IMG/VR virus record: IMGVR_UViG_2698536560_000009
Coordinates: 1 to 25,337 of that record
Origin: a virus
Lineage: Duplodnaviria > Heunggongvirae > Uroviricota > Caudoviricetes
Length of the DNA stretch: 25,337 nt
Direction: 5' to 3' (one strand)
Of this stretch, positions 5,400 to 25,337 are shown one piece after another (position 1 is the stretch's first letter; each line of letters opens with the position of its first letter). The position numbers and the translations under genes are program-made. The notes beneath the pieces are model-generated. The model made no database searches. It had not been told where the DNA came from and saw nothing but the letters and a program-made list of their open reading frames with translations.

Positions 5400-5435
5400 G
5401 GGTAACGTCCTGTTACCCGTTTCCTTTTTTTATTT
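5400..5435 (+). terminator. hairpin plus T-run, oriented antisense to the late operon
   Basis: gggtaac-gtcct-gttaccc stem-loop (5400-5418) followed by gtttcctttttttattt on the plus strand. It lies between the 964-aa gene and the tail tube gene. Confidence 0.3.
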
Positions 5436-8324
5436 ATGAAGATTGTAGTAATGCACATATAGCCCCAATCCGCGTAAAAGTTCACCCGAATAGAAACCAA
5501 AGAACATACTATTGTTTTCGGCAGTTGTTTCATTACCTGTTCTGATTGACGCAGGCCATGTACCATTCATTACATGATTTGGTGAAATAACTGCATAGTT
5601 AAGTTGTATTTCATCAAATAGTAATTGAATTAGCTCATGATCTGGATATCCGGCGATAGCCATCATACATGCCCCTGCTAACCATAGACCGGACATATGA
5701 GGGGTAAAGCCATCATATTCTACAGAACCATTATCCCTAAAATAGGTAGGAGCTTTACCGCCATTATTTTTCATGAACCATTTTAGATAGTTCATCCAGT
5801 TCTGGCAGAAAGATATTAGTTTAGGAGGTATTACAGTACTGTCTTGTCGTGACCATAATTCATGTACTGCATCACACCCACCAAAGAAAGCCCTTGGTTC
5901 GTATCCACTCCATGCTTCGGCGTACCAGTGCTGCATTATGAATTGATCTGGCTTACCATCAGGGGCATATGCTAAAGCGTCCTGTCTGTTCCATACGAAA
6001 GCCTGTGCACATGGTCCTGGTAATGATGGTTTAAATTTATTTGTAAACCATGCCTGAGAATCATATAGAAAATTGATACTGTTATTTAAGCGAGTATGAT
6101 CTATTTCTGTTCCTTTAAAGCACCAGATCGCCGGTAGTTGATAACCCGGATACGGTAGACCACGCCACCCAGAATATAACTGGGCATAGGGATCGGTAAT
6201 GTTAGAGAACGGAATTAAACCCGGAGTATACGCAAGACTATCTAGCATATAATCCTTAATAGTACAGTCACCTAAACGGGCTGTGTAACCATTACCAGTT
6301 GTGTCGTTAAACGTAAGCAGTACTGTGACCGAATAATCACCTGTCCCACCATCTGTATACATCGCAGGCAAATCATTAATACAATACCAGTCAATCTTCC
6401 CATTCACACCATTTACTGGATCTGCATCAAGTAGCAGTGTGAAAGATTCACGGTTCGTTAGTACTGGGCTTGCGGGAATAGGATCAGGTTGAATCCATTC
6501 TCCTGGGTTATCTGGATCTTCAATTTCGGGGTGATCGGGTTGATAACCGTTTAGTTTGAAGTCAGCAATAGTAAAAGTCTTTGTAACCCATTCACCATTT
6601 GTTGCAGGGAGCATAGCCCACCAACGCCATTTATTATCATCACTTATACGAAAGTTAAAATCATCATCATATGAACGATAGGTAAAAGATTGAATATTGG
6701 CAGTCTCTGGTGTGAATATCCAAAACCCCACCACCTGTCCCCCGTCACCATCCATTGTTGTAGACACGACGTTATCGTAATAATTTCCAAGTACTCCACT
6801 CTGATATTCAAAGTTTGTTACCGTGTTATCTCCATAATCGGCGATCATACGTAGATCAGCAGTCATATAATTAGAGCCATCTGGTTTCATTACACGTGTA
6901 AAACGATTCATAGGAATGTCCATTGTAGTGATAGAGCCATCTGGATTAGTCATTGGTAGACCACACCGATAATCAATTGCACCTTCTTCTGTTTTTGTTT
7001 TATTCACTGTGACTTCAGCAGAAACTGACATTGCAGTACTGGTATTATCAACACCACCATATTCAATATGAAACTTTGAGTTATTATTGAATTTAAACCA
7101 GATTGATTGTTGTTCTAACATCGTCTGTGCGGATGCACTTTGATTTATTACAATATAACCCTGTGCATCACGGGAATATGATGCTACTTGCTCACTTGGG
7201 TAGAAGTAGTCGTATGAAATACCATCAGTAAAAGGTGTTACGGCAATAGTAGATTTACGAAAGAACATATCGTACTTGTCAATATCTGAATATCCATAAC
7301 AGGTTAATAGTGCACATTGCCACGCAAGATAATACTGGCGTTCTCCTGTAATATCCCAAAGTAGCTTGGCTGCCTGACAAAACCATAATTCGGCATCTGA
7401 TGCATTATCAGAGAAGTCCAAAGAACCATAGTTATCAATCGGTACGTGTACAGGTCGGTTATGCCAGCGTTCATTACGCTTGAACATATACCCGCCATGT
7501 TCTACAGGGTTTCGGGTTGCATAGTTAAAACGATATTCACCAGTAATGGTTTTATTCTTTAACTGTACTGTACCTTCCTGACCAGTTAGACCGGATTGCA
7601 GTACAGTGCCGTTTGAGTCTACCTTACGTCCGGTACGATCAATGATCCATTCGACGTCATAGGTTGGTGCTTTAGTGTCCCAGTCTATTGAGTCTTCATT
7701 GGCAAGCCACAGATAAGCAGTTGCGTTAACCTGATTCCAGCCAAGTCCCGCACGCTTAGGGAAGGCAAACCATACTGCATCGAGGTATTCACCCCAGTGT
7801 GGTGCACCATGTGGGATCTTTGTAAGGCCATTAGCCCATGTGAATAGTGTCCCTTTAAAACCGCCATGCGTCGGATATTCTGGATCTAATGGGTAGTGTG
7901 CCAGTACTGGAGCCTTCCCATTACAAATCCAATTACAGCGTAGTGATGAACTCGGTGGATCTGGAAATGGTGCACCACGATAGAACGCCTTGTGATATGC
8001 GTTAAAGTACTCTTTTGCCTTCTGTAGATAGAAAGGGTCTTTAGTTGCCTGATACACATATATTGCCCCCAGAATCTGGAGGCTTTGACCTTCTGTAGTT
8101 GCATCACCTTCCGGCTGTGCCTCCCATCCAGTTTCTGCAATAAAGTGACGGTTGTTTGCAAGTACATTATCTGGGTTTAATACATAGTGCTGTGTCTTAT
8201 TATTTGTTGTAAGGCCAGTATTACGTGCCAAGAACTTAAACTGACCTTCGATCATTTGATATGCATTATCTATATTGTGTGGTTTCATTATTTCATATCT
8301 GCCATTAGTAGAGAGCCGTACCAA
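5430..8324 (-). CDS. large virion-associated protein, possible carbohydrate-active/receptor-binding enzyme
   Basis: 964 aa (952 aa if ATG at 8286-8288 is used instead of the TTG at 8322-8324, which has a GGGGG Shine-Dalgarno). Very rich in W/Y/F with Gly-aromatic motifs such as GFTPHMSGLWLAGACMMAIAGYPDHE and FFGFYSGELLRGLGLY, which suggest a glycosidase-like fold. The functional call is inference only. Confidence 0.3.
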   Translation of the reverse strand: MVRLSTNGRYEIMKPHNIDNAYQMIEGQFKFLARNTGLTTNNKTQHYVLNPDNVLANNRHFIAETGWEAQPEGDATTEGQSLQILGAIYVYQATKDPFYLQKAKEYFNAYHKAFYRGAPFPDPPSSSLRCNWICNGKAPVLAHYPLDPEYPTHGGFKGTLFTWANGLTKIPHGAPHWGEYLDAVWFAFPKRAGLGWNQVNATAYLWLANEDSIDWDTKAPTYDVEWIIDRTGRKVDSNGTVLQSGLTGQEGTVQLKNKTITGEYRFNYATRNPVEHGGYMFKRNERWHNRPVHVPIDNYGSLDFSDNASDAELWFCQAAKLLWDITGERQYYLAWQCALLTCYGYSDIDKYDMFFRKSTIAVTPFTDGISYDYFYPSEQVASYSRDAQGYIVINQSASAQTMLEQQSIWFKFNNNSKFHIEYGGVDNTSTAMSVSAEVTVNKTKTEEGAIDYRCGLPMTNPDGSITTMDIPMNRFTRVMKPDGSNYMTADLRMIADYGDNTVTNFEYQSGVLGNYYDNVVSTTMDGDGGQVVGFWIFTPETANIQSFTYRSYDDDFNFRISDDNKWRWWAMLPATNGEWVTKTFTIADFKLNGYQPDHPEIEDPDNPGEWIQPDPIPASPVLTNRESFTLLLDADPVNGVNGKIDWYCINDLPAMYTDGGTGDYSVTVLLTFNDTTGNGYTARLGDCTIKDYMLDSLAYTPGLIPFSNITDPYAQLYSGWRGLPYPGYQLPAIWCFKGTEIDHTRLNNSINFLYDSQAWFTNKFKPSLPGPCAQAFVWNRQDALAYAPDGKPDQFIMQHWYAEAWSGYEPRAFFGGCDAVHELWSRQDSTVIPPKLISFCQNWMNYLKWFMKNNGGKAPTYFRDNGSVEYDGFTPHMSGLWLAGACMMAIAGYPDHELIQLLFDEIQLNYAVISPNHVMNGTWPASIRTGNETTAENNSMFFGFYSGELLRGLGLYVHYYNLHK

Positions 8325-14487: not shown

Positions 14488-16407
14488 TTAAAACCAGTTA
14501 CGATTATTAAGTGCTGAAAGTCCTTTTTTCTTAGGTTTTGATTTCTGCTTCTCTTTCTGTACTGGTTGTTGTTCTGCTTTAGTTTTTATGGATTCTTCTA
14601 CTTTAGTATTTAGTTCTTTTTGTTTAGCTCTATACTCTCGCAACTTCCTATACGGTTGTGCACCAAGTGCCTGTATCTTGTGATCAATCGCTGCTAATGA
14701 GTAGACGAGCGTATCGAGACATTCGTTACGCTCTCCATTTGGATTCTCCCATACCATCACTGAACCTTTTCGTACTAGTTTTTCTGCTGTAAGTTGGAGG
14801 AAGTAATCATCGACAAGGGAATGACTGAAGTGTATATTAGTACTATACTCTCCCCCTTCACATGCCTGTCGTAATAACTTCTTAACCTGGTGCTTCAGTA
14901 CTTGAGTATTAATATTAACCAGTTGATGTCCTGCCGTTGTGGAATCCTTCGTGATGGGACCAGTCTGTGTGTTTGCACCCTTAATTGCATGCCATCGTCC
15001 CCCACTGGAAGAACAAAAGCGATATATGGAACTGGTTGCAGATCCGTTTGAGCTATCAATAAAGGATCTCAGTACTGGTACTTTTCTACCTGAAGTGGTT
15101 TTAAATATACTCTTACTATAATTAAGTAGTTCAGTATATGCCTTATCTTCATACTTAGTACAATCGACACCATAAAACATACGGTGGTCCAGAACCCATA
15201 TATTCTTTTCATCAAATGCAATAGTACTACATTCTAAGCGGTCTATCTGTTGGTCACATGCCAGTACAATACCAAGTGCATTATCTGGAATATGTTTTAC
15301 ATCTAAATCAAAGTCGCGTAAGTTTTCCAGTACTGTAAGATCTTCTTTAATATTATTCTTATCTACCCACGGTAAACCGAGTACGTTATTATAGAAAGAT
15401 TGTTCTTCAAAGTTTATCCATGAGTTCTTAAAGTCTTCAACAATCTTCTCAATAGTAGTAATCGGTGAATATAGTCTATTAACATGGTATCCCCTGAAAC
15501 CCATCACATGCAGTCTGTGTGCTTTCCAGTAACCTTTTGCAACCATCCGTGCACGTTGCCCTTCAGTGATTACTTCATCACATCCTGGACAGTGTAGGCG
15601 TGCTGTAGTGGGTTCTGGTGCATTACGTCGTTCGTTGAACTTCACCCATTCAAACTTTATATTCTCCCATTCTAAAATATGGTCATGATCACAATGTGGA
15701 CACACGACATGAAAATGTCTCTGGTCTGAGAGTTCCCATTGCTGGCAGATCATATCGTCCTGTACTAATGGTGTGGAGGCCATCACGATCAGGGAGTTCT
15801 TACCAAACTGAGTTGCACGCTGTTCTATGAGTGATAGGGGGTTGCCCTCATCTTGTTCTGGATCTACACCTGATAATTCATCAATGAAGATTGCAGGAAC
15901 TGTAAGCGAGCGTAGGGACTGGCTAGAATTGAGGTTAACAAAGTATGTCTTAGTACCGTCAACGTTCTGTTGAGTGTGTAGATCGTTTACTGCATTCTTA
16001 TCTGATTTGTCAGTGATTAATGCTTGAAGGTTTGGACACGCATTAATAGTATCCATCCATTTACCAGTACGGAACTTTTTCACAGTACTACCACTACTAC
16101 CCGCAAATATCATATGGGAGGGTTTATTTGCCATCCTGTAAAGCATTGCATTTTGTAGTATTGTTGTCTTGAGTAATTGTGCACTACTCATTAAACAGAT
16201 CTTCTGTACTGATGGATCTACTGTGGCGTTTAGGGGTTCTACTTGAAATGAAAATAATTTAGTTTTTTGTTGTGCCAGTGGTCCATCTGGAAATACAGTA
16301 TATTGTTCACACCATTCAGATGGTTTAATCTTCGGTGGGGGTAATATTGATTTCAGACTCTGGTTCAGAATCTTCATCATCTTCTTCTGGCTGTTCTTCG
16401 TACTCAT
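14488..16407 (-). CDS. terminase large subunit (lambda gpA-like)
   Basis: 639 aa. Contains Cys/His clusters (CPHCDHDH, HCPGCDE) and an acidic IFIDELSG segment typical of gpA-family terminases. Follows a Nu1-like small subunit gene. Confidence 0.8.
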   Translation of the reverse strand: MSTKNSQKKMMKILNQSLKSILPPPKIKPSEWCEQYTVFPDGPLAQQKTKLFSFQVEPLNATVDPSVQKICLMSSAQLLKTTILQNAMLYRMANKPSHMIFAGSSGSTVKKFRTGKWMDTINACPNLQALITDKSDKNAVNDLHTQQNVDGTKTYFVNLNSSQSLRSLTVPAIFIDELSGVDPEQDEGNPLSLIEQRATQFGKNSLIVMASTPLVQDDMICQQWELSDQRHFHVVCPHCDHDHILEWENIKFEWVKFNERRNAPEPTTARLHCPGCDEVITEGQRARMVAKGYWKAHRLHVMGFRGYHVNRLYSPITTIEKIVEDFKNSWINFEEQSFYNNVLGLPWVDKNNIKEDLTVLENLRDFDLDVKHIPDNALGIVLACDQQIDRLECSTIAFDEKNIWVLDHRMFYGVDCTKYEDKAYTELLNYSKSIFKTTSGRKVPVLRSFIDSSNGSATSSIYRFCSSSGGRWHAIKGANTQTGPITKDSTTAGHQLVNINTQVLKHQVKKLLRQACEGGEYSTNIHFSHSLVDDYFLQLTAEKLVRKGSVMVWENPNGERNECLDTLVYSLAAIDHKIQALGAQPYRKLREYRAKQKELNTKVEESIKTKAEQQPVQKEKQKSKPKKKGLSALNNRNWF

Positions 16408-16846
16408 ATGATCCTAATTCCCTTAGTTTCTCATCAATCCTTTCTTCTAGTTTTATCCGCAATGTATCCGCATCTTCACTTTCAAATAGTTCTACATAGA
16501 TAGATGCCGGAATACTTCTTAGTACTCCGCGTAGTGCTGCAAAATAACCAGTTAGTGTTTGAGTTACATAATCAGTACTCAATACCTTTTCAGTACTGAT
16601 ATTTAATTCAATCTCAACTAAATCTGCTTCAAGTGATATCTTGCGTAATTTCTCTTTTTCAATCTGTTCTTTTACATCAGTATTTCGCAATGGTTGGATA
16701 ATATTAATTAGTATCCATTGATCTATTTCTTTTTTACTTGCTTTCTTTGGGTGTGGCATTCCACGTTTTGCCCATTCACGGCTTACAGTACTGTCATTAA
16801 CTCCCATACGTTCTGCAATTTCGTTTGTTGTATATCTATCGTTCAA
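16325..16846 (-). CDS. terminase small subunit (lambda Nu1-like, N-terminal HTH)
   Basis: The N-terminal TNEIAERMGVNDSTVSREWAKRGMP resembles the Nu1 winged-HTH (…IRTIQNWQEQGMP), and the C-terminus is acidic. The start codon at 16844-16846 is TTG; the first in-frame ATG would truncate the HTH. Confidence 0.6.
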   Translation of the reverse strand: MNDRYTTNEIAERMGVNDSTVSREWAKRGMPHPKKASKKEIDQWILINIIQPLRNTDVKEQIEKEKLRKISLEADLVEIELNISTEKVLSTDYVTQTLTGYFAALRGVLRSIPASIYVELFESEDADTLRIKLEERIDEKLRELGSYEYEEQPEEDDEDSEPESEINITPTED

Positions 16847-16904
16847 TTTGTTTATCCAGGTTTTGTTTGTGTTATTTAAAATATTTAATATGCAAAAAAA
16901 ATAG

Positions 16905-16915
16905 TTCGCGGCGAA
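16905..16915. other. GC-rich near-palindrome TTCGC-G-GCGAA, candidate cosN-like site
   Basis: An isolated GC-rich symmetric element in the AT-rich region about 60 bp upstream of the Nu1-like terminase start. It resembles the GGCGGCGA core of lambda cosN. A 7-bp inverted repeat acttccc/gggaagt lies at 16915-16921 and 16940-16946. Confidence 0.25.
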
Positions 16916-16952
16916 ACTTCCCGATTGTGTCTATTCAGAGGGAAGTACCTAT

Positions 16953-16981: not shown

Positions 16982-17010
16982 GTTAGGGAATCGGATTTGT
17001 TGGAGTGTTT

Positions 17011-17514
17011 ATGAATCAGAAGCTCATCCAAACAGTCATTTCTGAGTGTCATCGTATAGAAGAGGACGCTCTTTACTCTTCTAAATCTCATTATAATGTT
17101 TCTGATAGATGGGATAAGCTGAATCTGTGGTTCGGTGTACCATTAGCAATCTTAACCGCTTTGAGTGGTATTGCCGCAATCAAGAGTACAGCCAATGCTG
17201 TTGTAGCTATTTCCATAACTGCTACAATTCTAACTGCATTAAATACGTCTCTTAACCCAAGTAAGCGTGCTGCACTTCATAAATCAGCAGCAAATGAATA
17301 TAATAAATTAAAGAATGAAGTTAGAATATTTAGGGAAATATTGACTTCTAATTTTGATTTTACTGATAAAACTTTGATTGAAAAACTTACGAGTTACTCT
17401 GATCGACGCAATCAACTTAATTCAAGTTCGCCAAATATTCCTCGGTGGGCTTATGAGAAAACTCAAAGAGATGTTAACCAAGGCTTTACTAAGTATAATA
17501 TTGACAAGGAATAA
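17011..17514 (+). CDS. SLATT-like two-transmembrane effector protein
   Basis: 167 aa from the ATG at 17011 (GGAG 6 nt upstream; the ORF track begins at a GTG at 17005). Two adjacent hydrophobic helices (LWFGVPLAILTALSGIAAI and AVVAISITATILTALNTSL) are flanked by short soluble regions. The stop lies 2 nt before the NTase start. The family call rests on architecture and on the SMODS neighbour. Confidence 0.45.
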   Translation: MNQKLIQTVISECHRIEEDALYSSKSHYNVSDRWDKLNLWFGVPLAILTALSGIAAIKSTANAVVAISITATILTALNTSLNPSKRAALHKSAANEYNKLKNEVRIFREILTSNFDFTDKTLIEKLTSYSDRRNQLNSSSPNIPRWAYEKTQRDVNQGFTKYNIDKE

Positions 17515-17516
17515 AC

Positions 17517-18293
17517 ATGACAGTCAGTACCTATCTTGAGTCTATTAAAAGCAATGCTTATCAAAGAGATATTACAATAACGAATTCAATTGCAACCATA
17601 AAAAACAGACTGAATGGTTATTTTGCTGGTGAACTTGTTAGTCATTTTGTATTTGGCTCATATTCACGTAATACAATGCTTCCTCGTAGCTATGATCCTT
17701 CTTCTGATGTTGATTATATGGTTGTATTCAAAAATGTAATATATCAGCCTCAGACCTACCTAAACAAGCTAAGGGGTTTTGTAAATTATTACTATCGTAC
17801 ATCTGAAATAAAGCAAAGCCACCCTACTATTCAATTGAACCTTAATCATATTACTTTCGAGCTTGTCCCTGCATCTCATAATATTTTATTTGGTTATCAA
17901 ATCCCTTCCAACCAGGATTTTTTGAACCGTTGGATGAATACCGATCCCAATGCGTTCAATACTGATTTAACTAATTGCAATAAAAATAATAACAATTTAA
18001 TTAAGCCTCTTATTCGCATAATGAAATATTGGAATGCCAATGCAGGTTATGTCTTTGAGTCGTATCAACTTGAAAAAGATATTGTTAGCTTTAACTATTT
18101 TTGGTGCTCTACCCTTAAAGAATATTTTTACTCTGCTGTAGAACAACTTTCAGGTTCCTATTATCTCGCACAATGGAAAAAAGATAAGATTCAGCGTCTA
18201 AAAAATTCAGTTATGATGTCAAAATATTATGAGCAGTTAAACAATCATTTTGCCGCCGAAAATGAAATAAAGAAAATTTTACCCATAAAATAA
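17517..18293 (+). CDS. SMODS / CD-NTase-like nucleotidyltransferase (Pol-beta superfamily)
   Basis: 258 aa. Carries the GS-x15-DVD signature (FGSYSRNTMLPRSYDPSSDVDYMVVF), a downstream acidic ITFELV, and a LIRIMKYW motif like the OAS/cGAS-type helix. AAGGA Shine-Dalgarno 8 nt upstream. Confidence 0.6.
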   Translation: MTVSTYLESIKSNAYQRDITITNSIATIKNRLNGYFAGELVSHFVFGSYSRNTMLPRSYDPSSDVDYMVVFKNVIYQPQTYLNKLRGFVNYYYRTSEIKQSHPTIQLNLNHITFELVPASHNILFGYQIPSNQDFLNRWMNTDPNAFNTDLTNCNKNNNNLIKPLIRIMKYWNANAGYVFESYQLEKDIVSFNYFWCSTLKEYFYSAVEQLSGSYYLAQWKKDKIQRLKNSVMMSKYYEQLNNHFAAENEIKKILPIK

Positions 18294-19569: not shown

Positions 19570-20373
19570 ATGAAATTTGTCTCTGAAAGAATTGACCATG
19601 TAAAAATAGCTAATGGATATTGTGTAATATGTGGTAATTTTGGCAAATTAAAAAAAGACCATGTTCCCCCGCAATGTGCATCTAAACCTTCACCTATGTT
19701 ACAAAAAACGATTTCTGAGTATTTCTCTAATACTCGAGTACCACCAATTAAAGCAAAAAGCGGGACAACTTTTCGTACCATTTGTCACAATTGTAACTCG
19801 AATATTTTAGGATCAATGGATGCAGAAATAGGCCGTGTTACAACTGAATTCATCGAAAAGTTAAATGATTATTTTAGTGGTAAGTTCTTTTACAAAAATT
19901 ATATTTCATTAAAATTTGATGCGGATAAATTTCTAAGAGCAATGATTGGACACCTTCTGGCTGCAACTTCAGTAAAAGATTGTATGAAGCCTATTGTTGA
20001 TAGTCCTTTTTATACTCCATTGAGAAATTTTGTATTAGGCAGGAATCCAGACATTGGGGCAACTCATAATATTTACTATTGGTTTTATCCATTCAGAAAA
20101 CAAATTACTGCTCAGTCAGTTACATTCTACAATAATGGACATCATAGTATATGTTCTTGCTTACATTTTTTCCCAATATCTTTTTTGGTTACACTGAAGG
20201 AGCAAGGAACATTTCCTATTCATGCAACTGAAATGACTCAATATGATCAATCTCTTCATTTTAATATGACAACGGCTAATATTGATTATGCTTCATTTCC
20301 CTTTGTAGGTTTAAAGAATAATCAATTTATGATGGTAATTTCTGGTCATACTTGTGTTAGTTATCCTAAATGA
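19570..20373 (+). CDS. HNH-motif (His-Me finger) nuclease-like protein with uncharacterised C-terminal domain
   Basis: The N-terminus contains C-x2-C ... DH ... C-x2-C-N (CVICGNFGKLKKDHVPP ... TICHNCNSN). The spacer is longer than in the canonical HNH motif. The C-terminal ~180 aa are unrecognised. Confidence 0.5.
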   Translation: MKFVSERIDHVKIANGYCVICGNFGKLKKDHVPPQCASKPSPMLQKTISEYFSNTRVPPIKAKSGTTFRTICHNCNSNILGSMDAEIGRVTTEFIEKLNDYFSGKFFYKNYISLKFDADKFLRAMIGHLLAATSVKDCMKPIVDSPFYTPLRNFVLGRNPDIGATHNIYYWFYPFRKQITAQSVTFYNNGHHSICSCLHFFPISFLVTLKEQGTFPIHATEMTQYDQSLHFNMTTANIDYASFPFVGLKNNQFMMVISGHTCVSYPK

Positions 20374-20400
20374 TTTTCAACTAAAGGTTGAGAAATATAG

Positions 20401-20445
20401 ACATAAGAACATAAGAACATAAGAACATAAGAACATAAGAACATA
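20401..20445. repeat. tandem octanucleotide repeat (ACATAAGA) x 5.6
   Basis: acataaga x5 then acata, in the intergenic region between the HNH gene stop (20373) and the next gene (20591). Confidence 0.9.
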
Positions 20446-20457
20446 GTCCAACTGTTC

Positions 20458-20519
20458 AGCGACACGTCCCACACACACCAACTAAACAAACCTACCCTTT
20501 ATGAGTGGGGCGTGTCGCT
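20458..20519. repeat. GC-rich inverted repeat with 15-bp arms (one mismatch) and a 32-nt CA-rich spacer
   Basis: agcgacacgtcccac (20458-20472) pairs with gtggggcgtgtcgct (20505-20519); the spacer is acacaccaactaaacaaacctaccctttatga. Confidence 0.8.
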
Positions 20520-20590
20520 AATAGTTTACGCCAGAATGGTTATTATGGTAAAGTTCATTTTTCACTTTGATATATTGGATTTCTAAAAAA

Positions 20591-21142
20591 ATGGAAGCTG
20601 AAACCATTACACAACTCATTGCAGTCGGTGGTACTTTAGGCGGTGCATTAATAGCTGCGGGTGTAACATTGGCAAGCCAATTAATCACTAAAAAATATGA
20701 GAACGAAAAACTAAAAAAACAACTTTTATTCAAAATACTCGAAGATGAATTAAAAGAAAAAAAGCAAACTATTAAACCTTTCATTCAGTTTATTAATTCT
20801 TTGAATCTTCCAGAAAATTTTAATTTTTATGATGATGGTGATCTTTTAGATCAAATTATGCTTTATAAACAGGATTTAATTAAAAGTAAAGCAAGTGACT
20901 TCCTTCTCGATTATACATTATACATGACACCACAAATTCACGATGCGATTTGGACGGTTACTAATGCTATAAATGATTTTGAAGAATTGGGAGCACGGTT
21001 TTATGATTCATCATTGAGTAAACAAGAAAACGATGAAATATTACTTAGAAATTGTAGCGGTAAGCCAACTGAAATTTGGGAAGCTTTGATGAAATTGAAA
21101 GGCTTGCTCTATAGTGAAGTTAACATAGCTGATAAATTATGA
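20591..21142 (+). CDS. hypothetical membrane-anchored coiled-coil protein
   Basis: The ORF track starts at a TTG at 20567; the first ATG is at 20591. An N-terminal transmembrane helix (LIAVGGTLGGALIAAGVTLASQLI) is followed by a K/E-rich helical domain. The stop overlaps the next gene's ATG as ATGA at 21139-21142. Confidence 0.5.
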   Translation: MEAETITQLIAVGGTLGGALIAAGVTLASQLITKKYENEKLKKQLLFKILEDELKEKKQTIKPFIQFINSLNLPENFNFYDDGDLLDQIMLYKQDLIKSKASDFLLDYTLYMTPQIHDAIWTVTNAINDFEELGARFYDSSLSKQENDEILLRNCSGKPTEIWEALMKLKGLLYSEVNIADKL

Positions 21143-21840
21143 ATATAAAAACTATAAACTCTACTCTTGTCGGCATTGTTGCAGTACTTCTGTTTTTAGC
21201 AGTCTTAGTACTCGTTAAGGTTCTATTCGCTGGTAGCAGGGGGTTTGAATGGGGGAACGCAGCTGATTTAACAAGTGCGTTATGCAATATCGTGATTGCG
21301 TCTACAGCTCTTTGTGCTGCTTTTGTAGCAAATAATTGGTTCGTTCAGAATAAAAAATTAAAATCCCTTTCTACCTCACATCAGTTGGCTATGAAATTTG
21401 AGATGCAGTTATGGGAAATAAATTCACGTTTATATAATGATGGTATAGTTCGTGCTTCCATCAGGAAATATGTTCAGGATAATAAAGAACTGACAGATGA
21501 AATAAAATCTAAAGTTGCTGCTGAAATTAATAAAAAGGCCACAAGTGATTTATCTGAACTTGCTAAGCTATATACGACAAGGTCAATGCTAGCCAGGTTT
21601 GATATTAAGTTAAGCGAACGGCTTGAAAATTTATTTAAAAATATATTAGAGTTAAGGCAGTCATATTTAGACAATCAATATATATATCTATTGACCATAT
21701 GCAAACATATTAATTGCCCCAAGCATGAGGACGTAATTGCAGCTACAGAAAATCTTGAAAGTGTTAAAAGAGAGCTAGCTGCCATATTTCAGTACGAGCT
21801 ATGTGAAACAAATATTGATACTGATTATTCGTTCAGCTAA
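21139..21840 (+). CDS. hypothetical 2TM membrane protein (paralog A)
   Basis: 233 aa with an N-terminal hydrophobic hairpin (LVGIVAVLLFLAVLVLVKVLFAGSRGFEWG, then LCNIVIASTALCAAFVANNWF) and a soluble C-terminal domain. The N-terminus is about 35% identical by eye to that of the 22818-23561 protein. Confidence 0.5.
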   Translation: MNIKTINSTLVGIVAVLLFLAVLVLVKVLFAGSRGFEWGNAADLTSALCNIVIASTALCAAFVANNWFVQNKKLKSLSTSHQLAMKFEMQLWEINSRLYNDGIVRASIRKYVQDNKELTDEIKSKVAAEINKKATSDLSELAKLYTTRSMLARFDIKLSERLENLFKNILELRQSYLDNQYIYLLTICKHINCPKHEDVIAATENLESVKRELAAIFQYELCETNIDTDYSFS

Positions 21841-21877
21841 ATTTATAGTTAATTGATGTAAATAAAAAGGAAAGCTT

Positions 21878-22699
21878 ATGCTTGGGGAGTCATTTAATCA
21901 ATTCATGGTAGAGTCTTATTTGTCCAGTACCTCAATAGGTGGTGGGCTTACTGCTGTGCGGAAATGTAGAGCACATGATAAAGGTAGCTTCTATAGCAGC
22001 TTCTTTCAATTATCAATTGGCATAGAAAGGTTTTTTAAGATTATCTTCATACTCAATCATATGATCGAAAATAATCTTGAGAAGCCAGACTTCCGTACAC
22101 TTAAAAAATTCAGCCATAATATTGCGGAGCTTCATAAAAACTGTTCAAGCTATGGTGCTAGCCATTTACCCAATTTGGAGTGGGAATTAAACTGGCAGCA
22201 AAACCTCATATTAGAAATGCTTTCTGAATTCGCTGATGCTTCAAGATATTATAATCTTGATAAAATTGTAAAAGGCAAAAAAGAAGTCAAAGATCCGTTA
22301 GCACAGTGGAACGAAATAATTAATTCTTGCTTCCGTAAACACATTACTGATTCTAGAAAACAAAAACTAGAAAGAGAATTAAATTTATGGGCCGACAAAT
22401 ACAAAGCATACGGTTACACCTGGAATAGAGGTCTTGATGGTGCGATTTTAAGCCAAATTGATGAGTATATACTTTCCTGGAAAGTAATAAACGTTTCACC
22501 TTATATTGTGTTTGAAATCATTGATATGTTGCAGCCTTATTATTATCTAATTTCTAAATTTAAAGATGATATTGACAACATTGAGCACAGTAAAGGGATA
22601 AGAGAACCTCTGGTTCCATATCTCCATGAGATATTTGTATTTCTACTTGTCCATAAGAAGTTAGCTTTGAGTAGAAAAACATGGAGTTTCCGTTATTAA
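21878..22699 (+). CDS. hypothetical soluble protein flanked by the two 2TM paralogs
   Basis: 273 aa with an AAGGA Shine-Dalgarno and ATG at 21878. An R-x4-H (RKCRAH) motif lies near the N-terminus, but no confident family assignment is possible. Confidence 0.45.
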   Translation: MLGESFNQFMVESYLSSTSIGGGLTAVRKCRAHDKGSFYSSFFQLSIGIERFFKIIFILNHMIENNLEKPDFRTLKKFSHNIAELHKNCSSYGASHLPNLEWELNWQQNLILEMLSEFADASRYYNLDKIVKGKKEVKDPLAQWNEIINSCFRKHITDSRKQKLERELNLWADKYKAYGYTWNRGLDGAILSQIDEYILSWKVINVSPYIVFEIIDMLQPYYYLISKFKDDIDNIEHSKGIREPLVPYLHEIFVFLLVHKKLALSRKTWSFRY

Positions 22700-22735
22700 T
22701 TACATGGACATGTATCACATTATTAATCAGAGAGG

Positions 22736-22753
22736 CACTAATCATGATTAGTG
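22736..22753. promoter_or_regulatory. 18-bp perfect palindrome cactaatcatgattagtg, candidate operator upstream of 2TM paralog B
   Basis: Perfect dyad in the 118-bp gap between the genes at 21878-22699 and 22818-23561. Confidence 0.35.
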
Positions 22754-22817
22754 GAATATATATCCATCAATGCTACATATATACATCTATGTCTTTTATT
22801 TAAGAAATGAGATTAAC

Positions 22818-23561
22818 ATGCTTAATATTAAAAAATATAATTTAATACTACTAAGTACCGTACTATTACTGCTGCTAATTGCTATATTAGTTGGTGTAAA
22901 AATATTATTTTCTGGTTCGAAAGGATGGGAGTGGGTAACTTTAATTGGAACATTATGTAGTGCTGTAGGTACATTAGGTACACTATGGGTAGCCTACCAA
23001 GCATACCTAAAAGCACCTGAATGGTTGTCGCAAAAACATTATGATGTAGTATATGGTGTTATTGAGAAAGCAATTTATCAAGATCTTAATAAAGTACGTA
23101 CTTCAACCTTAATTTTAAAACATCAATTAGTGACATTCTCCAAAAAATATCGCAATCATTTAAAAAACGAGACCATACCCCAAGATTCACATGATGAGTT
23201 TATGAAGGAAACAGATGCTCTTGTTTCCGATTTATTCTTCACTTCTTACTCCGTTATTAATTCCTTAAAATCTATTGATAGAACTAATTATGCTTTAAGC
23301 GAATACACAAAAAACATTATTGCTGAACTTAAATTAAATATTGATGAATATAACGGACTGAGTATCGATTTCTATATTGCAAGTTCTGAGGTTCCTGCAC
23401 TTATACAGGCCGATGAATGTGTGAGGGATCAAACTAGTAGTGAGCTTTTCGTTATACAGTCAAAAGCAATTTCACTTCACAATAAGATTTCATCTTTCAT
23501 AAAAGATATATATGATGATAACTATCCAATTGATAACTTCATAACTCTAAAGAAAAAATGA
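22818..23561 (+). CDS. hypothetical 2TM membrane protein (paralog B)
   Basis: The likely start is the ATG at 22818 (MLNIKKYNLILL...); the ORF track begins at 22770. The N-terminal hairpin LILLSTVLLLLLIAILVGVKILFSGSKGWEW matches paralog A (shared VK.LF.GS.G.EW). Confidence 0.5.
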   Translation: MLNIKKYNLILLSTVLLLLLIAILVGVKILFSGSKGWEWVTLIGTLCSAVGTLGTLWVAYQAYLKAPEWLSQKHYDVVYGVIEKAIYQDLNKVRTSTLILKHQLVTFSKKYRNHLKNETIPQDSHDEFMKETDALVSDLFFTSYSVINSLKSIDRTNYALSEYTKNIIAELKLNIDEYNGLSIDFYIASSEVPALIQADECVRDQTSSELFVIQSKAISLHNKISSFIKDIYDDNYPIDNFITLKKK

Positions 23562-23696
23562 TTAATACCCTATCTTGCAAACCTATTAAGTTTGTAGAAT
23601 TACTGATGACTTAATAGAAAAAGTCATACTTGATTCAAAATCATTAAGGATGCATATTAAAGAAACGTTTACATTTCCCAAATAAGCATCAGTTCT

Positions 23697-23730
23697 AAAA
23701 CACCGGATTTATCATTGCATCTGGTGTTTT
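23697..23730. terminator. hairpin at the convergent junction of the plus-strand island and minus-strand small genes
   Basis: aaaacacc / ggtgtttt 8-bp stem with an 18-nt loop. The right arm overlaps the last codons of the 66-aa ORF. Confidence 0.25.
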
Positions 23731-23912
23731 GAATAAATTTCTATTAGTAAATCTCTGTGTAGATTAGTACTAGGTAGTTCTTGCAATAATTGTATGTTAT
23801 GCTTTTCAATTACTTGATAACCTAGCTCTAGTACTTCTACAATTCCTTTTTTAAAATCAAACTCATAGATGTACTCTCCATAGTTATGGTGTATAAAATT
23901 GACGCCTTTCAT
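23712..23912 (-). CDS. hypothetical small protein (second gene of coupled pair)
   Basis: 66 aa with a GAGGA Shine-Dalgarno 7 nt upstream. Its ATG overlaps the stop of the 103-aa ORF as ATGA at 23909-23912. Confidence 0.4.
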   Translation of the reverse strand: MKGVNFIHHNYGEYIYEFDFKKGIVEVLELGYQVIEKHNIQLLQELPSTNLHRDLLIEIYSKHQMQ

Positions 23913-24220
23913 TCGTAGTCCTCACTTATTTTATTCATTTGTGTTTGAATAATAATTAATCGATTAATGTCGATCTCTGTTTGCAGTGCTAAGCTTGCTT
24001 GGAATAGTTCTGATTCACTCATCCTAGATAGATCAGGTGTTTCATTTATTTGAGTACCATCAATCTTCTGATGATAGAATTGTAGTCCTTCTCGTTGCAG
24101 TACTACACGTGTTGGGTGATTAAAGTAGACAATCTGATCCGTGAATACTGTCATAGTACTGTGATCCTCATACGTGTATCGGTGAAACAGATCATACTCT
24201 TCAGTTTTTAGTAATTTCAT
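23909..24220 (-). CDS. hypothetical small protein (first gene of coupled pair)
   Basis: 103 aa with an AGGA Shine-Dalgarno 9 nt upstream of the ATG at 24218-24220. No transmembrane segment and no recognised motif. Confidence 0.45.
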   Translation of the reverse strand: MKLLKTEEYDLFHRYTYEDHSTMTVFTDQIVYFNHPTRVVLQREGLQFYHQKIDGTQINETPDLSRMSESELFQASLALQTEIDINRLIIIQTQMNKISEDYE

Positions 24221-24329
24221 TTTTATTATCCTCTGTAGTACTGGTATTTATTAAAAAGGTGTGATTCTATAATAAAGGCCAGTTTATTTTCATAGTCTAA
24301 TGGGTATACACAGACTCCCTACTCACTTT

Positions 24330-24690
24330 CATTTCCTCATAGTATGCCTCTCGGTGGCTTGTGTGTTGCGTATTCATCCGGCGGTGCGGCTTCACACTTT
24401 AATTAATTAAGTTCCTAGCTAGTATGGGTAGTGGTTCACTTTAGTGAGCTTCAACAGCGAACGACCCAAACAAGGGAGTTTACGACCGCGTAGTACTCAC
24501 GAATACTTTAGACCGTAGGTCGACCCCAAATACTTTATTAATCACTTTGGTGAGTACATGGGGTTTGTTTGAGCGAAAGCAAGTAAAGGACTTGCTCGAC
24601 CTGAAAGGGCGAAAGTCTGGTTATAAATTCTAAGATCAAAGGCGAGCTTGCGAGGTTTTGATCTTCGGACTTCAGTCCATTTTATATGTG
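24330..24690 (+). ncRNA. GC-enriched structured non-coding segment (candidate ncRNA or late-transcript leader)
   Basis: No convincing ORF. Contains several local stems, including aagatcaaa/tttgatctt, agcaagt/acttgct, gtactcac/gtgagtac and two GCGAAAG (GNRA-type) hairpin loops. Strand and class are undetermined. Confidence 0.2.
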
Positions 24691-24707
24691 TTATTATATT
24701 ATAGTGT

Positions 24708-24719
24708 TCCATTAATGAA
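24708..24719. promoter_or_regulatory. operator-like palindrome copy 1 (tccattaatgaa, one mismatch)
   Basis: Imperfect copy of the TCCATTAATGGA dyad. Confidence 0.3.
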
Positions 24720-24782
24720 GTAAAATTCACAATTTCAACGGTAGAATGCGGGTTTCAAGCCATATATGTTGGAATATAACAC

Positions 24783-24794
24783 TCCATTAATGGA
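24783..24794. promoter_or_regulatory. operator-like 12-bp perfect palindrome TCCATTAATGGA (copy 2)
   Basis: Perfect dyad, 41 bp from copy 3. Confidence 0.4.
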
Positions 24795-24823
24795 ATAAAA
24801 TCTCTATTAGTGGATTAACTCAT

Positions 24824-24835
24824 TCCATTAATGGA
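24824..24835. promoter_or_regulatory. operator-like 12-bp perfect palindrome TCCATTAATGGA (copy 3)
   Basis: Perfect dyad, 14 nt from the stop of the 162-aa ORF. Confidence 0.4.
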
Positions 24836-24848
24836 GTTAAAAAATGCT

Positions 24849-25337
24849 TCATTTACCATCAATGAAACCCTGTAGAATAATAATTAGTTCCTCTGCTGAT
24901 GCTCCGCTATCATGTGCGTTTGCTAACGTCTCATAGAACTGTTTGTTGTCTATGTAGTGCATTCCGTCCTTTTGCACTTTGAATAGCTTCACTTTGCGTT
25001 TATGTGCTGCTATAAGAGCTTTTGATACTGCGGTTGCTACACGCCTTACCTTTACTGCGGTAGATTCACTTACACGTTCCTGAACTTCTTTTATATGATA
25101 GTCCTGGTAAAGATGTAACCTGGCTAAAACTTTCTCAGTACTGAATGTGATCAAATTGAAAACGATGTAATAGATCTTAAATCCACTATATGGCTTACCG
25201 TTACCCATTGGGACTGATGCTATTGCTTCATCAATTATCTGTTTTGCTTCTGGTGTAAGATCGTTGTCATAGTCTCCAAAATTCCCCGCAATGCGTAGGA
25301 ATGGTGTATTGTCGTAATCTCGTGCTTTATTTGCCAT
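24849..25337 (-). CDS. hypothetical protein (possible regulator; start coincides with window edge)
   Basis: 162 aa ORF whose ATG is at 25335-25337, exactly at the window end, so the true start could lie beyond the window. Stop at 24849-24851. Followed by a region with three TCCATTAATGGA palindromes. Confidence 0.4.
   Translation of the reverse strand: MANKARDYDNTPFLRIAGNFGDYDNDLTPEAKQIIDEAIASVPMGNGKPYSGFKIYYIVFNLITFSTEKVLARLHLYQDYHIKEVQERVSESTAVKVRRVATAVSKALIAAHKRKVKLFKVQKDGMHYIDNKQFYETLANAHDSGASAEELIIILQGFIDGK

Follow-up and report, generated by a model that had tools for sequence, protein, structure and literature searches.

A conserved site array beside the gene of an undescribed 162-aa protein as a candidate operator in a rare AT-rich enterobacterial prophage family

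Introduction

The operator and immunity modules of phages, such as lambda CI/Cro (OR1-3) and P1 C1 (whose operators are asymmetric), contain lineage-specific sites lying on and upstream of a promoter, and the regulator is encoded beside these sites, the two being exchanged together as one specificity module. Specificity that depends on the lineage is also known from the replication origin of lambda, which consists of four dyad-symmetric iterons, an AT-rich region and a palindrome. Short repeats are likewise found at the packaging site of lambda, that is, in cosB, where the R sites of gpNu1 are three to four in number and stand in both orientations. The last type of module to be considered is that of the lambdoid Q proteins and of AlpA, in which the regulator gene is located upstream of the promoter, the site of the protein lies between -35 and -10, and a long untranslated leader with a terminator stands before the late genes (PMC6606751, PMC9388147; AlpA, PMC9371919). 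Two cis elements are described for lambdoid Q, namely its binding element, placed between -35 and -10, and a pause element that resembles a -10 and lies within the initially transcribed region (PMC6606751).

The locus described here shares features with all of these modules. It lies near one end of a 25,337-nt stretch of viral DNA (IMG/VR record IMGVR_UViG_2698536560_000009, hereafter the window), in which a first-pass annotation had seen three copies of a 12-bp palindrome behind a gene for a 162-aa protein. We give about an even chance to the reading that four sites of this type form an operator array of the 162-aa protein on a minus-strand promoter of the sigma-70 type, with its -10 hexamer TATAAT at 24703-24698. 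The sequences themselves show the sites, their conservation, motifs that differ by lineage, the linkage of these to the adjacent gene and, in most motif types, a constant distance to a -10-like hexamer; binding by the 162-aa protein, the activity of the promoter and the sign of regulation are what we infer from the arrangement. Like the CI/Cro and P1 C1 modules, the locus has lineage-specific sites on and upstream of a putative promoter, with the candidate regulator encoded beside them and exchanged with them. Unlike in those modules, the candidate regulator is co-directional with its proposed target and not divergent from it, and no terminator separates the two, an uncommon arrangement for a repressor; the sites are confined to a single locus, there is no sign of a second, antagonist regulator, and the 162-aa protein, whose binding here is predicted, is assignable to no helix-turn-helix family. 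A regulator with its sites, as proposed here, is an ordinary kind of object; it is the protein family, the leader and the phage family that are undescribed.

If the operator reading is right, the module would be the chief control point of an AT-rich and rare family of enterobacterial prophages (~33-36 kb), in which most early genes, the regulator included, are without family assignment. Moreover, the six motif types found among the relatives, each with its matching protein, would be a natural series on how DNA is read by an undescribed all-helical fold.

The Prophage and Its Gene Order

The segment 23600-25337 of the window is 99.9% identical to E. coli N61, in which the element is ~36 kb long and located between yggR and yggS (NZ_AP028880.1, ~792.5-829.1 kb; loci L001 and L008), with a large serine recombinase ~3 kb past the right end of the window. 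The prophage, one of an AT-rich family of ~33-36 kb, has ~30-35% G+C, is transcribed in one direction and uses the serine recombinase to integrate between the two ygg genes. The family is a rare one, since the 431-nt noncoding segment at 24270-24700 is matched in 4 of 5426 complete E. coli genomes; a DNA search of a phage collection found no deposited phage that matches the 1.8 kb around the array. The closest protein match to the window is in E. albertii. In E. coli N61 an IS3 element is inserted into the tape-measure region (L001 1136-2298); the corresponding part of the window (~5400-5900) lacks it, so the window derives from a different strain.

The lytic genes are all on the minus strand, on which the recombinase, several small genes, the remnant of an HNH endonuclease gene, the 162-aa gene and the array lead into 628 bp of noncoding DNA and then into the genes for proteins of 103 aa and 66 aa. 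On the far side of the cargo are the small terminase gene (16325-16846), that of a gpA-type large terminase, and the portal, head and tail genes. No recognisable CI/Cro-type genes were found in the element.

Sites of the Array

First of all, the three reported copies of the 12-mer TCCATTAATGGA are confirmed exactly: there are perfect copies at 24783-24794 and 24824-24835, 41 bp apart from start to start, and a copy with one mismatch (TCCATTAATGAA) at 24708-24719. To these is added a copy with two mismatches (TCTATTAGTGGA as read on the plus strand, 24803-24814), which the first list did not contain, and the four copies are packed into 128 bp. The array was correctly placed downstream of the 162-aa gene, which runs on the minus strand at 24849-25337 and has the array on its 3′ side. 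When up to two mismatches are allowed, the window contains eight matches to TCCATTAATGGA against 1.7 expected, a number that is reached in none of 100 shuffles, and half of the eight matches are the array sites. At one mismatch or less, no match was found outside the array, either in the window or in the remainder of the ~36-kb prophage as present in E. coli N61; the proposed search for further copies has thus found the motif to be unique at this threshold in the prophage, and not common at random places. A literature search with the motif string gave no relevant match.

In the order of minus-strand transcription, site 1 (24822-24837) contains the perfect 12-mer 24824-24835, begins 13 nt past the stop codon of the 162-aa gene with this 12-mer, and has the minus-strand 16-mer ACTCCATTAATGGAAT; site 2 (24803-24814) is the degenerate copy; site 3 (24781-24796) contains the perfect 12-mer 24783-24794 and a 16-mer that mirrors site 1; and site 4 (24706-24721), the promoter-proximal one, contains the single-mismatch 12-mer. 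The centre-to-centre distances of 21, 20 and 75 bp are roughly whole helical turns. The 12-mers are self-complementary, and the flanks make the extended 16-bp sites asymmetric, ACTCCATTAATGGAAT and ATTCCATTAATGGAGT being mutually mirror-image, so the sites have an orientation and follow the pattern < > > <.

The self-complementarity of the 12-mers, together with the 16-nt perfect inverted repeat formed by sites 1 and 3, would also suit an element that acts as RNA, in which case each palindrome would fold into a small hairpin, either within the 3′ UTR of the 162-aa mRNA or within an RNA from the plus strand, and would serve as a terminator or stabiliser instead of a protein-binding DNA site. 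In keeping with this, no other terminator was called after the 162-aa gene, and on the plus strand the first of the leader hairpins described below is followed by ATTTTAT just before site 4. However, a 4-bp stem with a 4-nt loop is very weak, and in most relatives the motif is not self-complementary (as with GTTCGCATAAT, TGCCGTAATA and ATAACCGTAAC), while the number, orientation and spacing of the sites are still kept; the motif also switches by whole specificity blocks together with the adjacent protein. We regard such an RNA-level element as very improbable.

Layout and Motif Types in Relatives

Relatives were collected by exact look-ups of homologues of the 162-aa protein and by DNA-pattern scans, which gave ~10 independent loci; scans of viral contigs and of genome contigs seeded with the 162-aa protein gave no matches, and the family as a whole diverges too far for its alignment to serve as a seed. 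At every locus with a gene of this family (153-174 aa), several copies of a 10-14-bp motif lie behind the gene, oriented both ways, and the first of them overlaps the stop codon or starts within a few bases of it. In L002-L004, where the family protein is 79% identical to that of the window, there are three perfect copies of TCCATTAATGGA, the spacing is again 41 and 75 bp, and site 1 is kept. The loci L005-L007 and L009 (proteins 70% and 66% identical) have the motif TCCGATAAT, and in L005 and L009 a counterpart of site 2 lies 20 bp upstream of a perfect site; the counterpart of site 1 overlaps the stop codon in L005, L009 and L036. The motif is GTTCGCATAAT in L010 (protein 42-44% identical), TGCCGTAATA in L012 and L034, ATAACCGTAAC in L035 and L036, and CCCGAATTTCGACA in L013 and L033. 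A TAAT/ATTA core is common to several of these motif types, and the rest of the motif varies.

The conserved layout among relatives, with a -10-like hexamer at a fixed offset in most of them, supports the earlier suggestion of an operator-like array in a control region. The part of that suggestion which took the spacing as a sign of a dimeric regulator is not upheld, the sites in the relatives being asymmetric and present in both orientations. On this comparison of sequences, the TCCATTAATGGA repeats are real and conserved candidate binding sites, most likely for the adjacent small phage protein.

The Candidate Binding Protein

The motif type was compared with the genes around the array across the relatives. 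The small terminases of L012 and L033 are 98% identical, with identical helix-turn-helix segments, and their HNH-AP2 neighbours are 94% identical, whereas their 162-family proteins are only 16% identical and their motifs differ. The reverse is seen in L013 and L033, which have the same motif and 162-family proteins that are 93% identical, against 38% for the small terminases, and in L005 and L009, in which the common motif goes with 80% identity of the 162-family proteins and 35% of the small terminases. In L011 a 458-aa P-loop protein replaces the 162-family gene, and such an array is absent. What counts against the pairing is that L035 and L036 have a common motif despite 162-family proteins that are 37% identical. 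As the motif type tracks the adjacent 153-174-aa gene and no other gene, the 162-aa protein, which had been named as one possible binder, is the best candidate. Gene and motif thus move together as one module, which is an association and not proof of binding.

Two other proteins were considered as binders and rejected: the small terminase, because the motif differs between L012 and L033 in spite of their nearly identical small terminases, and the HNH-AP2 neighbour, which is 89-94% identical across lineages with different motifs and is a 45-aa remnant in the window lineage (L001 21816-21953). In the relatives, this gene upstream of the 162-family gene is an HNH endonuclease (L002 5339-5932; L010 7474-7983), and in L010, L012 and L013 it carries an AP2-like DNA-binding motif.

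The 162-aa protein belongs to a small undescribed family of 153-174 aa. It is modelled with confidence as all-helical, has a basic segment in its centre and weakly resembles SANT/SLIDE/homeodomain-like folds; no match was found in Pfam, among PDB sequences or with Foldseek, and the fold gives no firm DNA-binding assignment. In the window lineage, a terminator-like hairpin of its own and a TATAAT stand immediately before the gene, beyond the window. A homologue is present in Klebsiella phage RaK2 (L037, 3977-4600), where it belongs to a two-gene plus-strand islet amid minus-strand baseplate genes and has two 36-bp direct repeats behind it, one on each side of a terminator-like hairpin.

The same comparison bears on packaging, in which the repeats would be binding sites of the small terminase, of cosB or pac type, beside a cleavage site. 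As at lambda cosB, short repeats, three to four of them, are oriented both ways in a phage whose terminase is of the gpA/Nu1 type, that is, a lambda gpA-type terminase with a Nu1-like small subunit. The HNH endonuclease gene just upstream in the relatives is a common neighbour of cos sites, and GC-rich patches occur in the noncoding region, one of which, ACGGGGCGGCG in L009, equals the lambda cos junction over 11 nt. Unlike at cosB, however, 7.9 kb separate the array from the small terminase gene and the motif type does not co-vary with the small terminase, as L012 and L033 illustrate, and there is a better cos candidate elsewhere, so a packaging signal has only a slight chance of being the right explanation.

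In each of the eight lineages compared, the better candidate stands ahead of the small terminase gene by 60-170 bp, and has the form GGTACTCC, ~20 nt, then GAGTTTTCGCCGCG. In the window it is located on the minus strand at 16904-16950; across the lineages it can be written as GGTACT(T/C)CC, ~20 nt, G(A)GTTTCGCCGCGA, and it resembles the lambda cosN flank GGGTTTTCGC. It is likely to be a cos or late-control element.

The Putative Promoter at the Proximal Site

The putative -10 hexamer TATAAT is located on the minus strand at 24698-24703, 4 nt past site 4. When the start of transcription is set ~7 nt after the hexamer, site 4 falls at ~-28 to -17. The centre of the last site is 9-11.5 nt before a -10-like hexamer in the window and L002, L005, L009, L010, L012/L034 and L035/L036, and this offset is kept despite completely different motifs; TATAAT-like hexamers are common in AT-rich DNA, and those of L012 and L013/L033 are poor. 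In L013/L033 there is no -10-like hexamer at the corresponding offset. Across the lineages, the distal cluster of sites lies 68-102 bp upstream of the last site. No recognisable -35 was found in any lineage, and it is because the -35 fails that the consensus scan did not list a promoter at 24703-24698. A second -10-like element, TATAAAAT, is located at 24679-24686 on the minus strand (~+6 to +13), and is kept as ATAAA(A)TGG in the window, L002, L005, L009 and L011, which AT-richness could yield by chance; that it acts as a sigma-dependent pause element is inference only.

Under the operator reading, the three distal sites (24781-24837, 20-21 bp apart) and the proximal site (24706-24721) would stand roughly on one face of the helix, and the proximal site would occupy the space between the missing -35 and the -10. 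A protein bound there would decide whether RNA polymerase starts, or how it leaves the promoter, and the distal cluster, 75 bp off, would boost its occupancy through cooperativity or looping. The resulting transcript would consist of a C-rich conserved leader of ~450 nt and then the 103-aa and 66-aa genes, and would head toward the cargo island and the packaging and structural genes. As for the sign of regulation, repression is slightly favoured. A proximal site in the promoter spacer suits a repressor that blocks polymerase with the aid of a looped distal cluster; activation, or antiterminator loading in the manner of Q, fits about equally well. The control of late or lysogeny-related transcription, as first proposed for the array, is plausible.

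The loading of an antiterminator would be a special case of a promoter at this place. Bound at the proximal site, between -35 and -10, the 162-aa protein would attach to RNA polymerase that has paused at the -10-like repeat (~+6 to +13), and the polymerase, now resistant to termination, would continue through the C-rich leader, the terminator-like hairpin at 23697-23730 and the antisense cargo (6.7 kb) as far as the terminase and structural genes; we consider this reading as a whole unlikely. As in lambdoid Q and AlpA, the candidate regulator gene is directly upstream of the putative promoter, the proximal site lies at ~-28 to -17, a -10-like repeat kept in five lineages follows the predicted start, and a long leader, presumed untranslated, with a terminator-like hairpin precedes the late genes. 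The terminator-like hairpin downstream (z -3.1) and the 158 bp before the small terminase gene, in which no minus-strand consensus promoter was found, point the same way, as does the leader, which is C-rich and G-poor. Rho-loading sites are likewise C-rich and G-poor. On the other hand, the 162-aa protein has no similarity in sequence or fold to the Q families of lambda, 21 or 82, nor to AlpA; the locus further differs from lambdoid Q in its three added distal sites, which Q proteins do not need, in having no recognisable -35, and in the leader, in which no clear, strong or canonical intrinsic terminator was called. The -10-like repeat, too, may just reflect AT-rich composition.

The Leader and the Noncoding Segment

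Two conserved hairpins stand at the start of the leader on the minus strand (24632-24678; z -2.2). Hairpin 1 occupies 24667-24678 and hairpin 2 occupies 24632-24665; from lineage to lineage the stems co-vary, and the loop of hairpin 2 is kept as CTCGCnnnGCTCG. The hairpins fold better on the plus strand (alifold -30 vs -14 kcal/mol, with nine G-U pairs vs three), and they may be antisense RNA or single-stranded DNA rather than minus-strand leader; a C-rich, G-poor minus strand would give the same strand asymmetry of folding. Such a composition is found in the minus-strand segment 24554-24693. In the window its C/G ratio reaches 1.81, a value that exceeds the 99th percentile of 140-nt stretches from the minus-coding part of the same DNA; of the 12 segments of relatives compared, 9 have a ratio of at least 1.48. 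The noncoding segment 24274-24700 (minus) also contains repeated CTCGC in a C-rich stretch and several AGTACT-like repeats.

Farther on, a 55-nt core (GAGTAnCTACGCGGTCGTAAACTCCCTTGT...) at 24448-24500 shows 87-97% identity even between phages with terminases of no more than 40-50% identity, and L002, L005 and L009 lack it. For neither strand of this core did alifold support a consensus structure. Neither Rfam, at its gathering threshold and at permissive ones, nor a tRNA/tmRNA search gave anything in 24150-24900 or in the whole window. A 19-mer of the core had 19 matches among genome contigs, 18 of which were chance matches or unrelated coding sequence in distant phyla, the sole true relative being in Brenneria; at these loci, Rfam found nothing at the matched positions. 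A 62-aa ORF at 24542-24730 was rejected as spurious, because the segment differs by indels among relatives.

It is around this segment that the main rival of the operator reading arises, in which the 162-aa protein would be a replication initiator, the four sites its iterons, the AT-rich stretch at ~24680-24706 an unwinding element, and the hairpins and the core a place for priming, for example by a transcript or as a single-strand initiation site used by host enzymes. The layout is like that of lambda ori, with about four dyad-like sites, then an AT-rich stretch and hairpins, and with lineage-dependent specificity; modules of an initiator and its sites co-vary in the same way as the gene and motif do here. 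No recognisable replication gene was found among the scanned proteins of the window and of the relatives or in the N61 annotation, which makes an origin attractive. The one-strand folding preference of the hairpins is like that of single-strand initiation sites, the identity of the core suggests contact with a conserved host component, and the P-loop protein at the 162-family position in L011 has a weak SF2-helicase-like match. Unlike in lambda ori, however, the sites are outside the gene and in mixed orientation with a gap of 75 bp (68-102 bp across the lineages) before the last, and are thus not regular iterons of one orientation. In addition, the 162-aa protein is unrelated to O/Rep initiators and matched no known initiator fold or family (Rep/O/DnaA-like), its homologue in RaK2 lies among the baseplate genes of a lytic jumbo phage, an unlikely spot for an origin protein, and the fixed offset between the last site and the -10 is more simply explained by a promoter. 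We regard an origin at this locus as rather unlikely.

Beyond both of these, the 162-aa gene, the array and the ~450-nt noncoding segment might make up one functional unit of an undescribed kind, that is, a fourth and structurally unrelated class of promoter-loaded antiterminators with a C-rich nut/rut-like leader, or a complete replicon, with initiator, iterons and a primer or priming region, of a small family of temperate phages that has shown no recognisable replication gene; this bolder view is also rather doubtful.

Under the operator reading, a transcript from the putative promoter would span the 103-aa and 66-aa genes and then reach the terminator-like hairpin at 23697-23730, past which another 6.7 kb, of cargo in antisense orientation, would have to be crossed to reach the small terminase gene. 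The noncoding segment of L010 leads directly into a terminator and convergent cargo. The block of the 103-aa and 66-aa genes (23762-24273) is absent at this place in L010 and its flanks are contiguous; a homologue of the 66-aa gene is found elsewhere in L010 in the opposite orientation, which shows local rearrangement at the edge of the hotspot (L010 6630-6800 and 9177-9178). A GC-rich patch (CCGCCGCC-like) is present in every lineage toward the 3′ end of the noncoding region, at 24378-24392 in the window. In L009, where it lies at ~6855, 365 nt past the stop of the 162-aa gene, the likeness of ACGGGGCGGCG to the lambda cos junction could be a coincidence or a second cos-like element.

The Cargo Hotspot

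The module forms the upstream edge of a hotspot of anti-phage cargo (CBASS, OLD-family nuclease), and the timing of the promoter, or the status of the locus as an origin, would reveal how this cargo is shielded from lytic transcription. On its plus strand (17005-18293), between the control region and the terminase genes, the window carries a two-gene system of the CBASS type, which consists of an SLATT/2TM effector (169 aa) and a SMODS oligonucleotide cyclase (258 aa); L009 and L010 have an OLD-family nuclease in place of this pair. The plus strand also carries, at 19570-23668, a five-gene cassette (267, 191, 233, 273 and 263 aa), several products of which are predicted membrane proteins. The cassette is also present in an island of E. 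coli 55989 beside IS3 and an H-NS-like gene, and 88 complete E. coli genomes contain its final 69 bp (23600-23668) at 100% identity.
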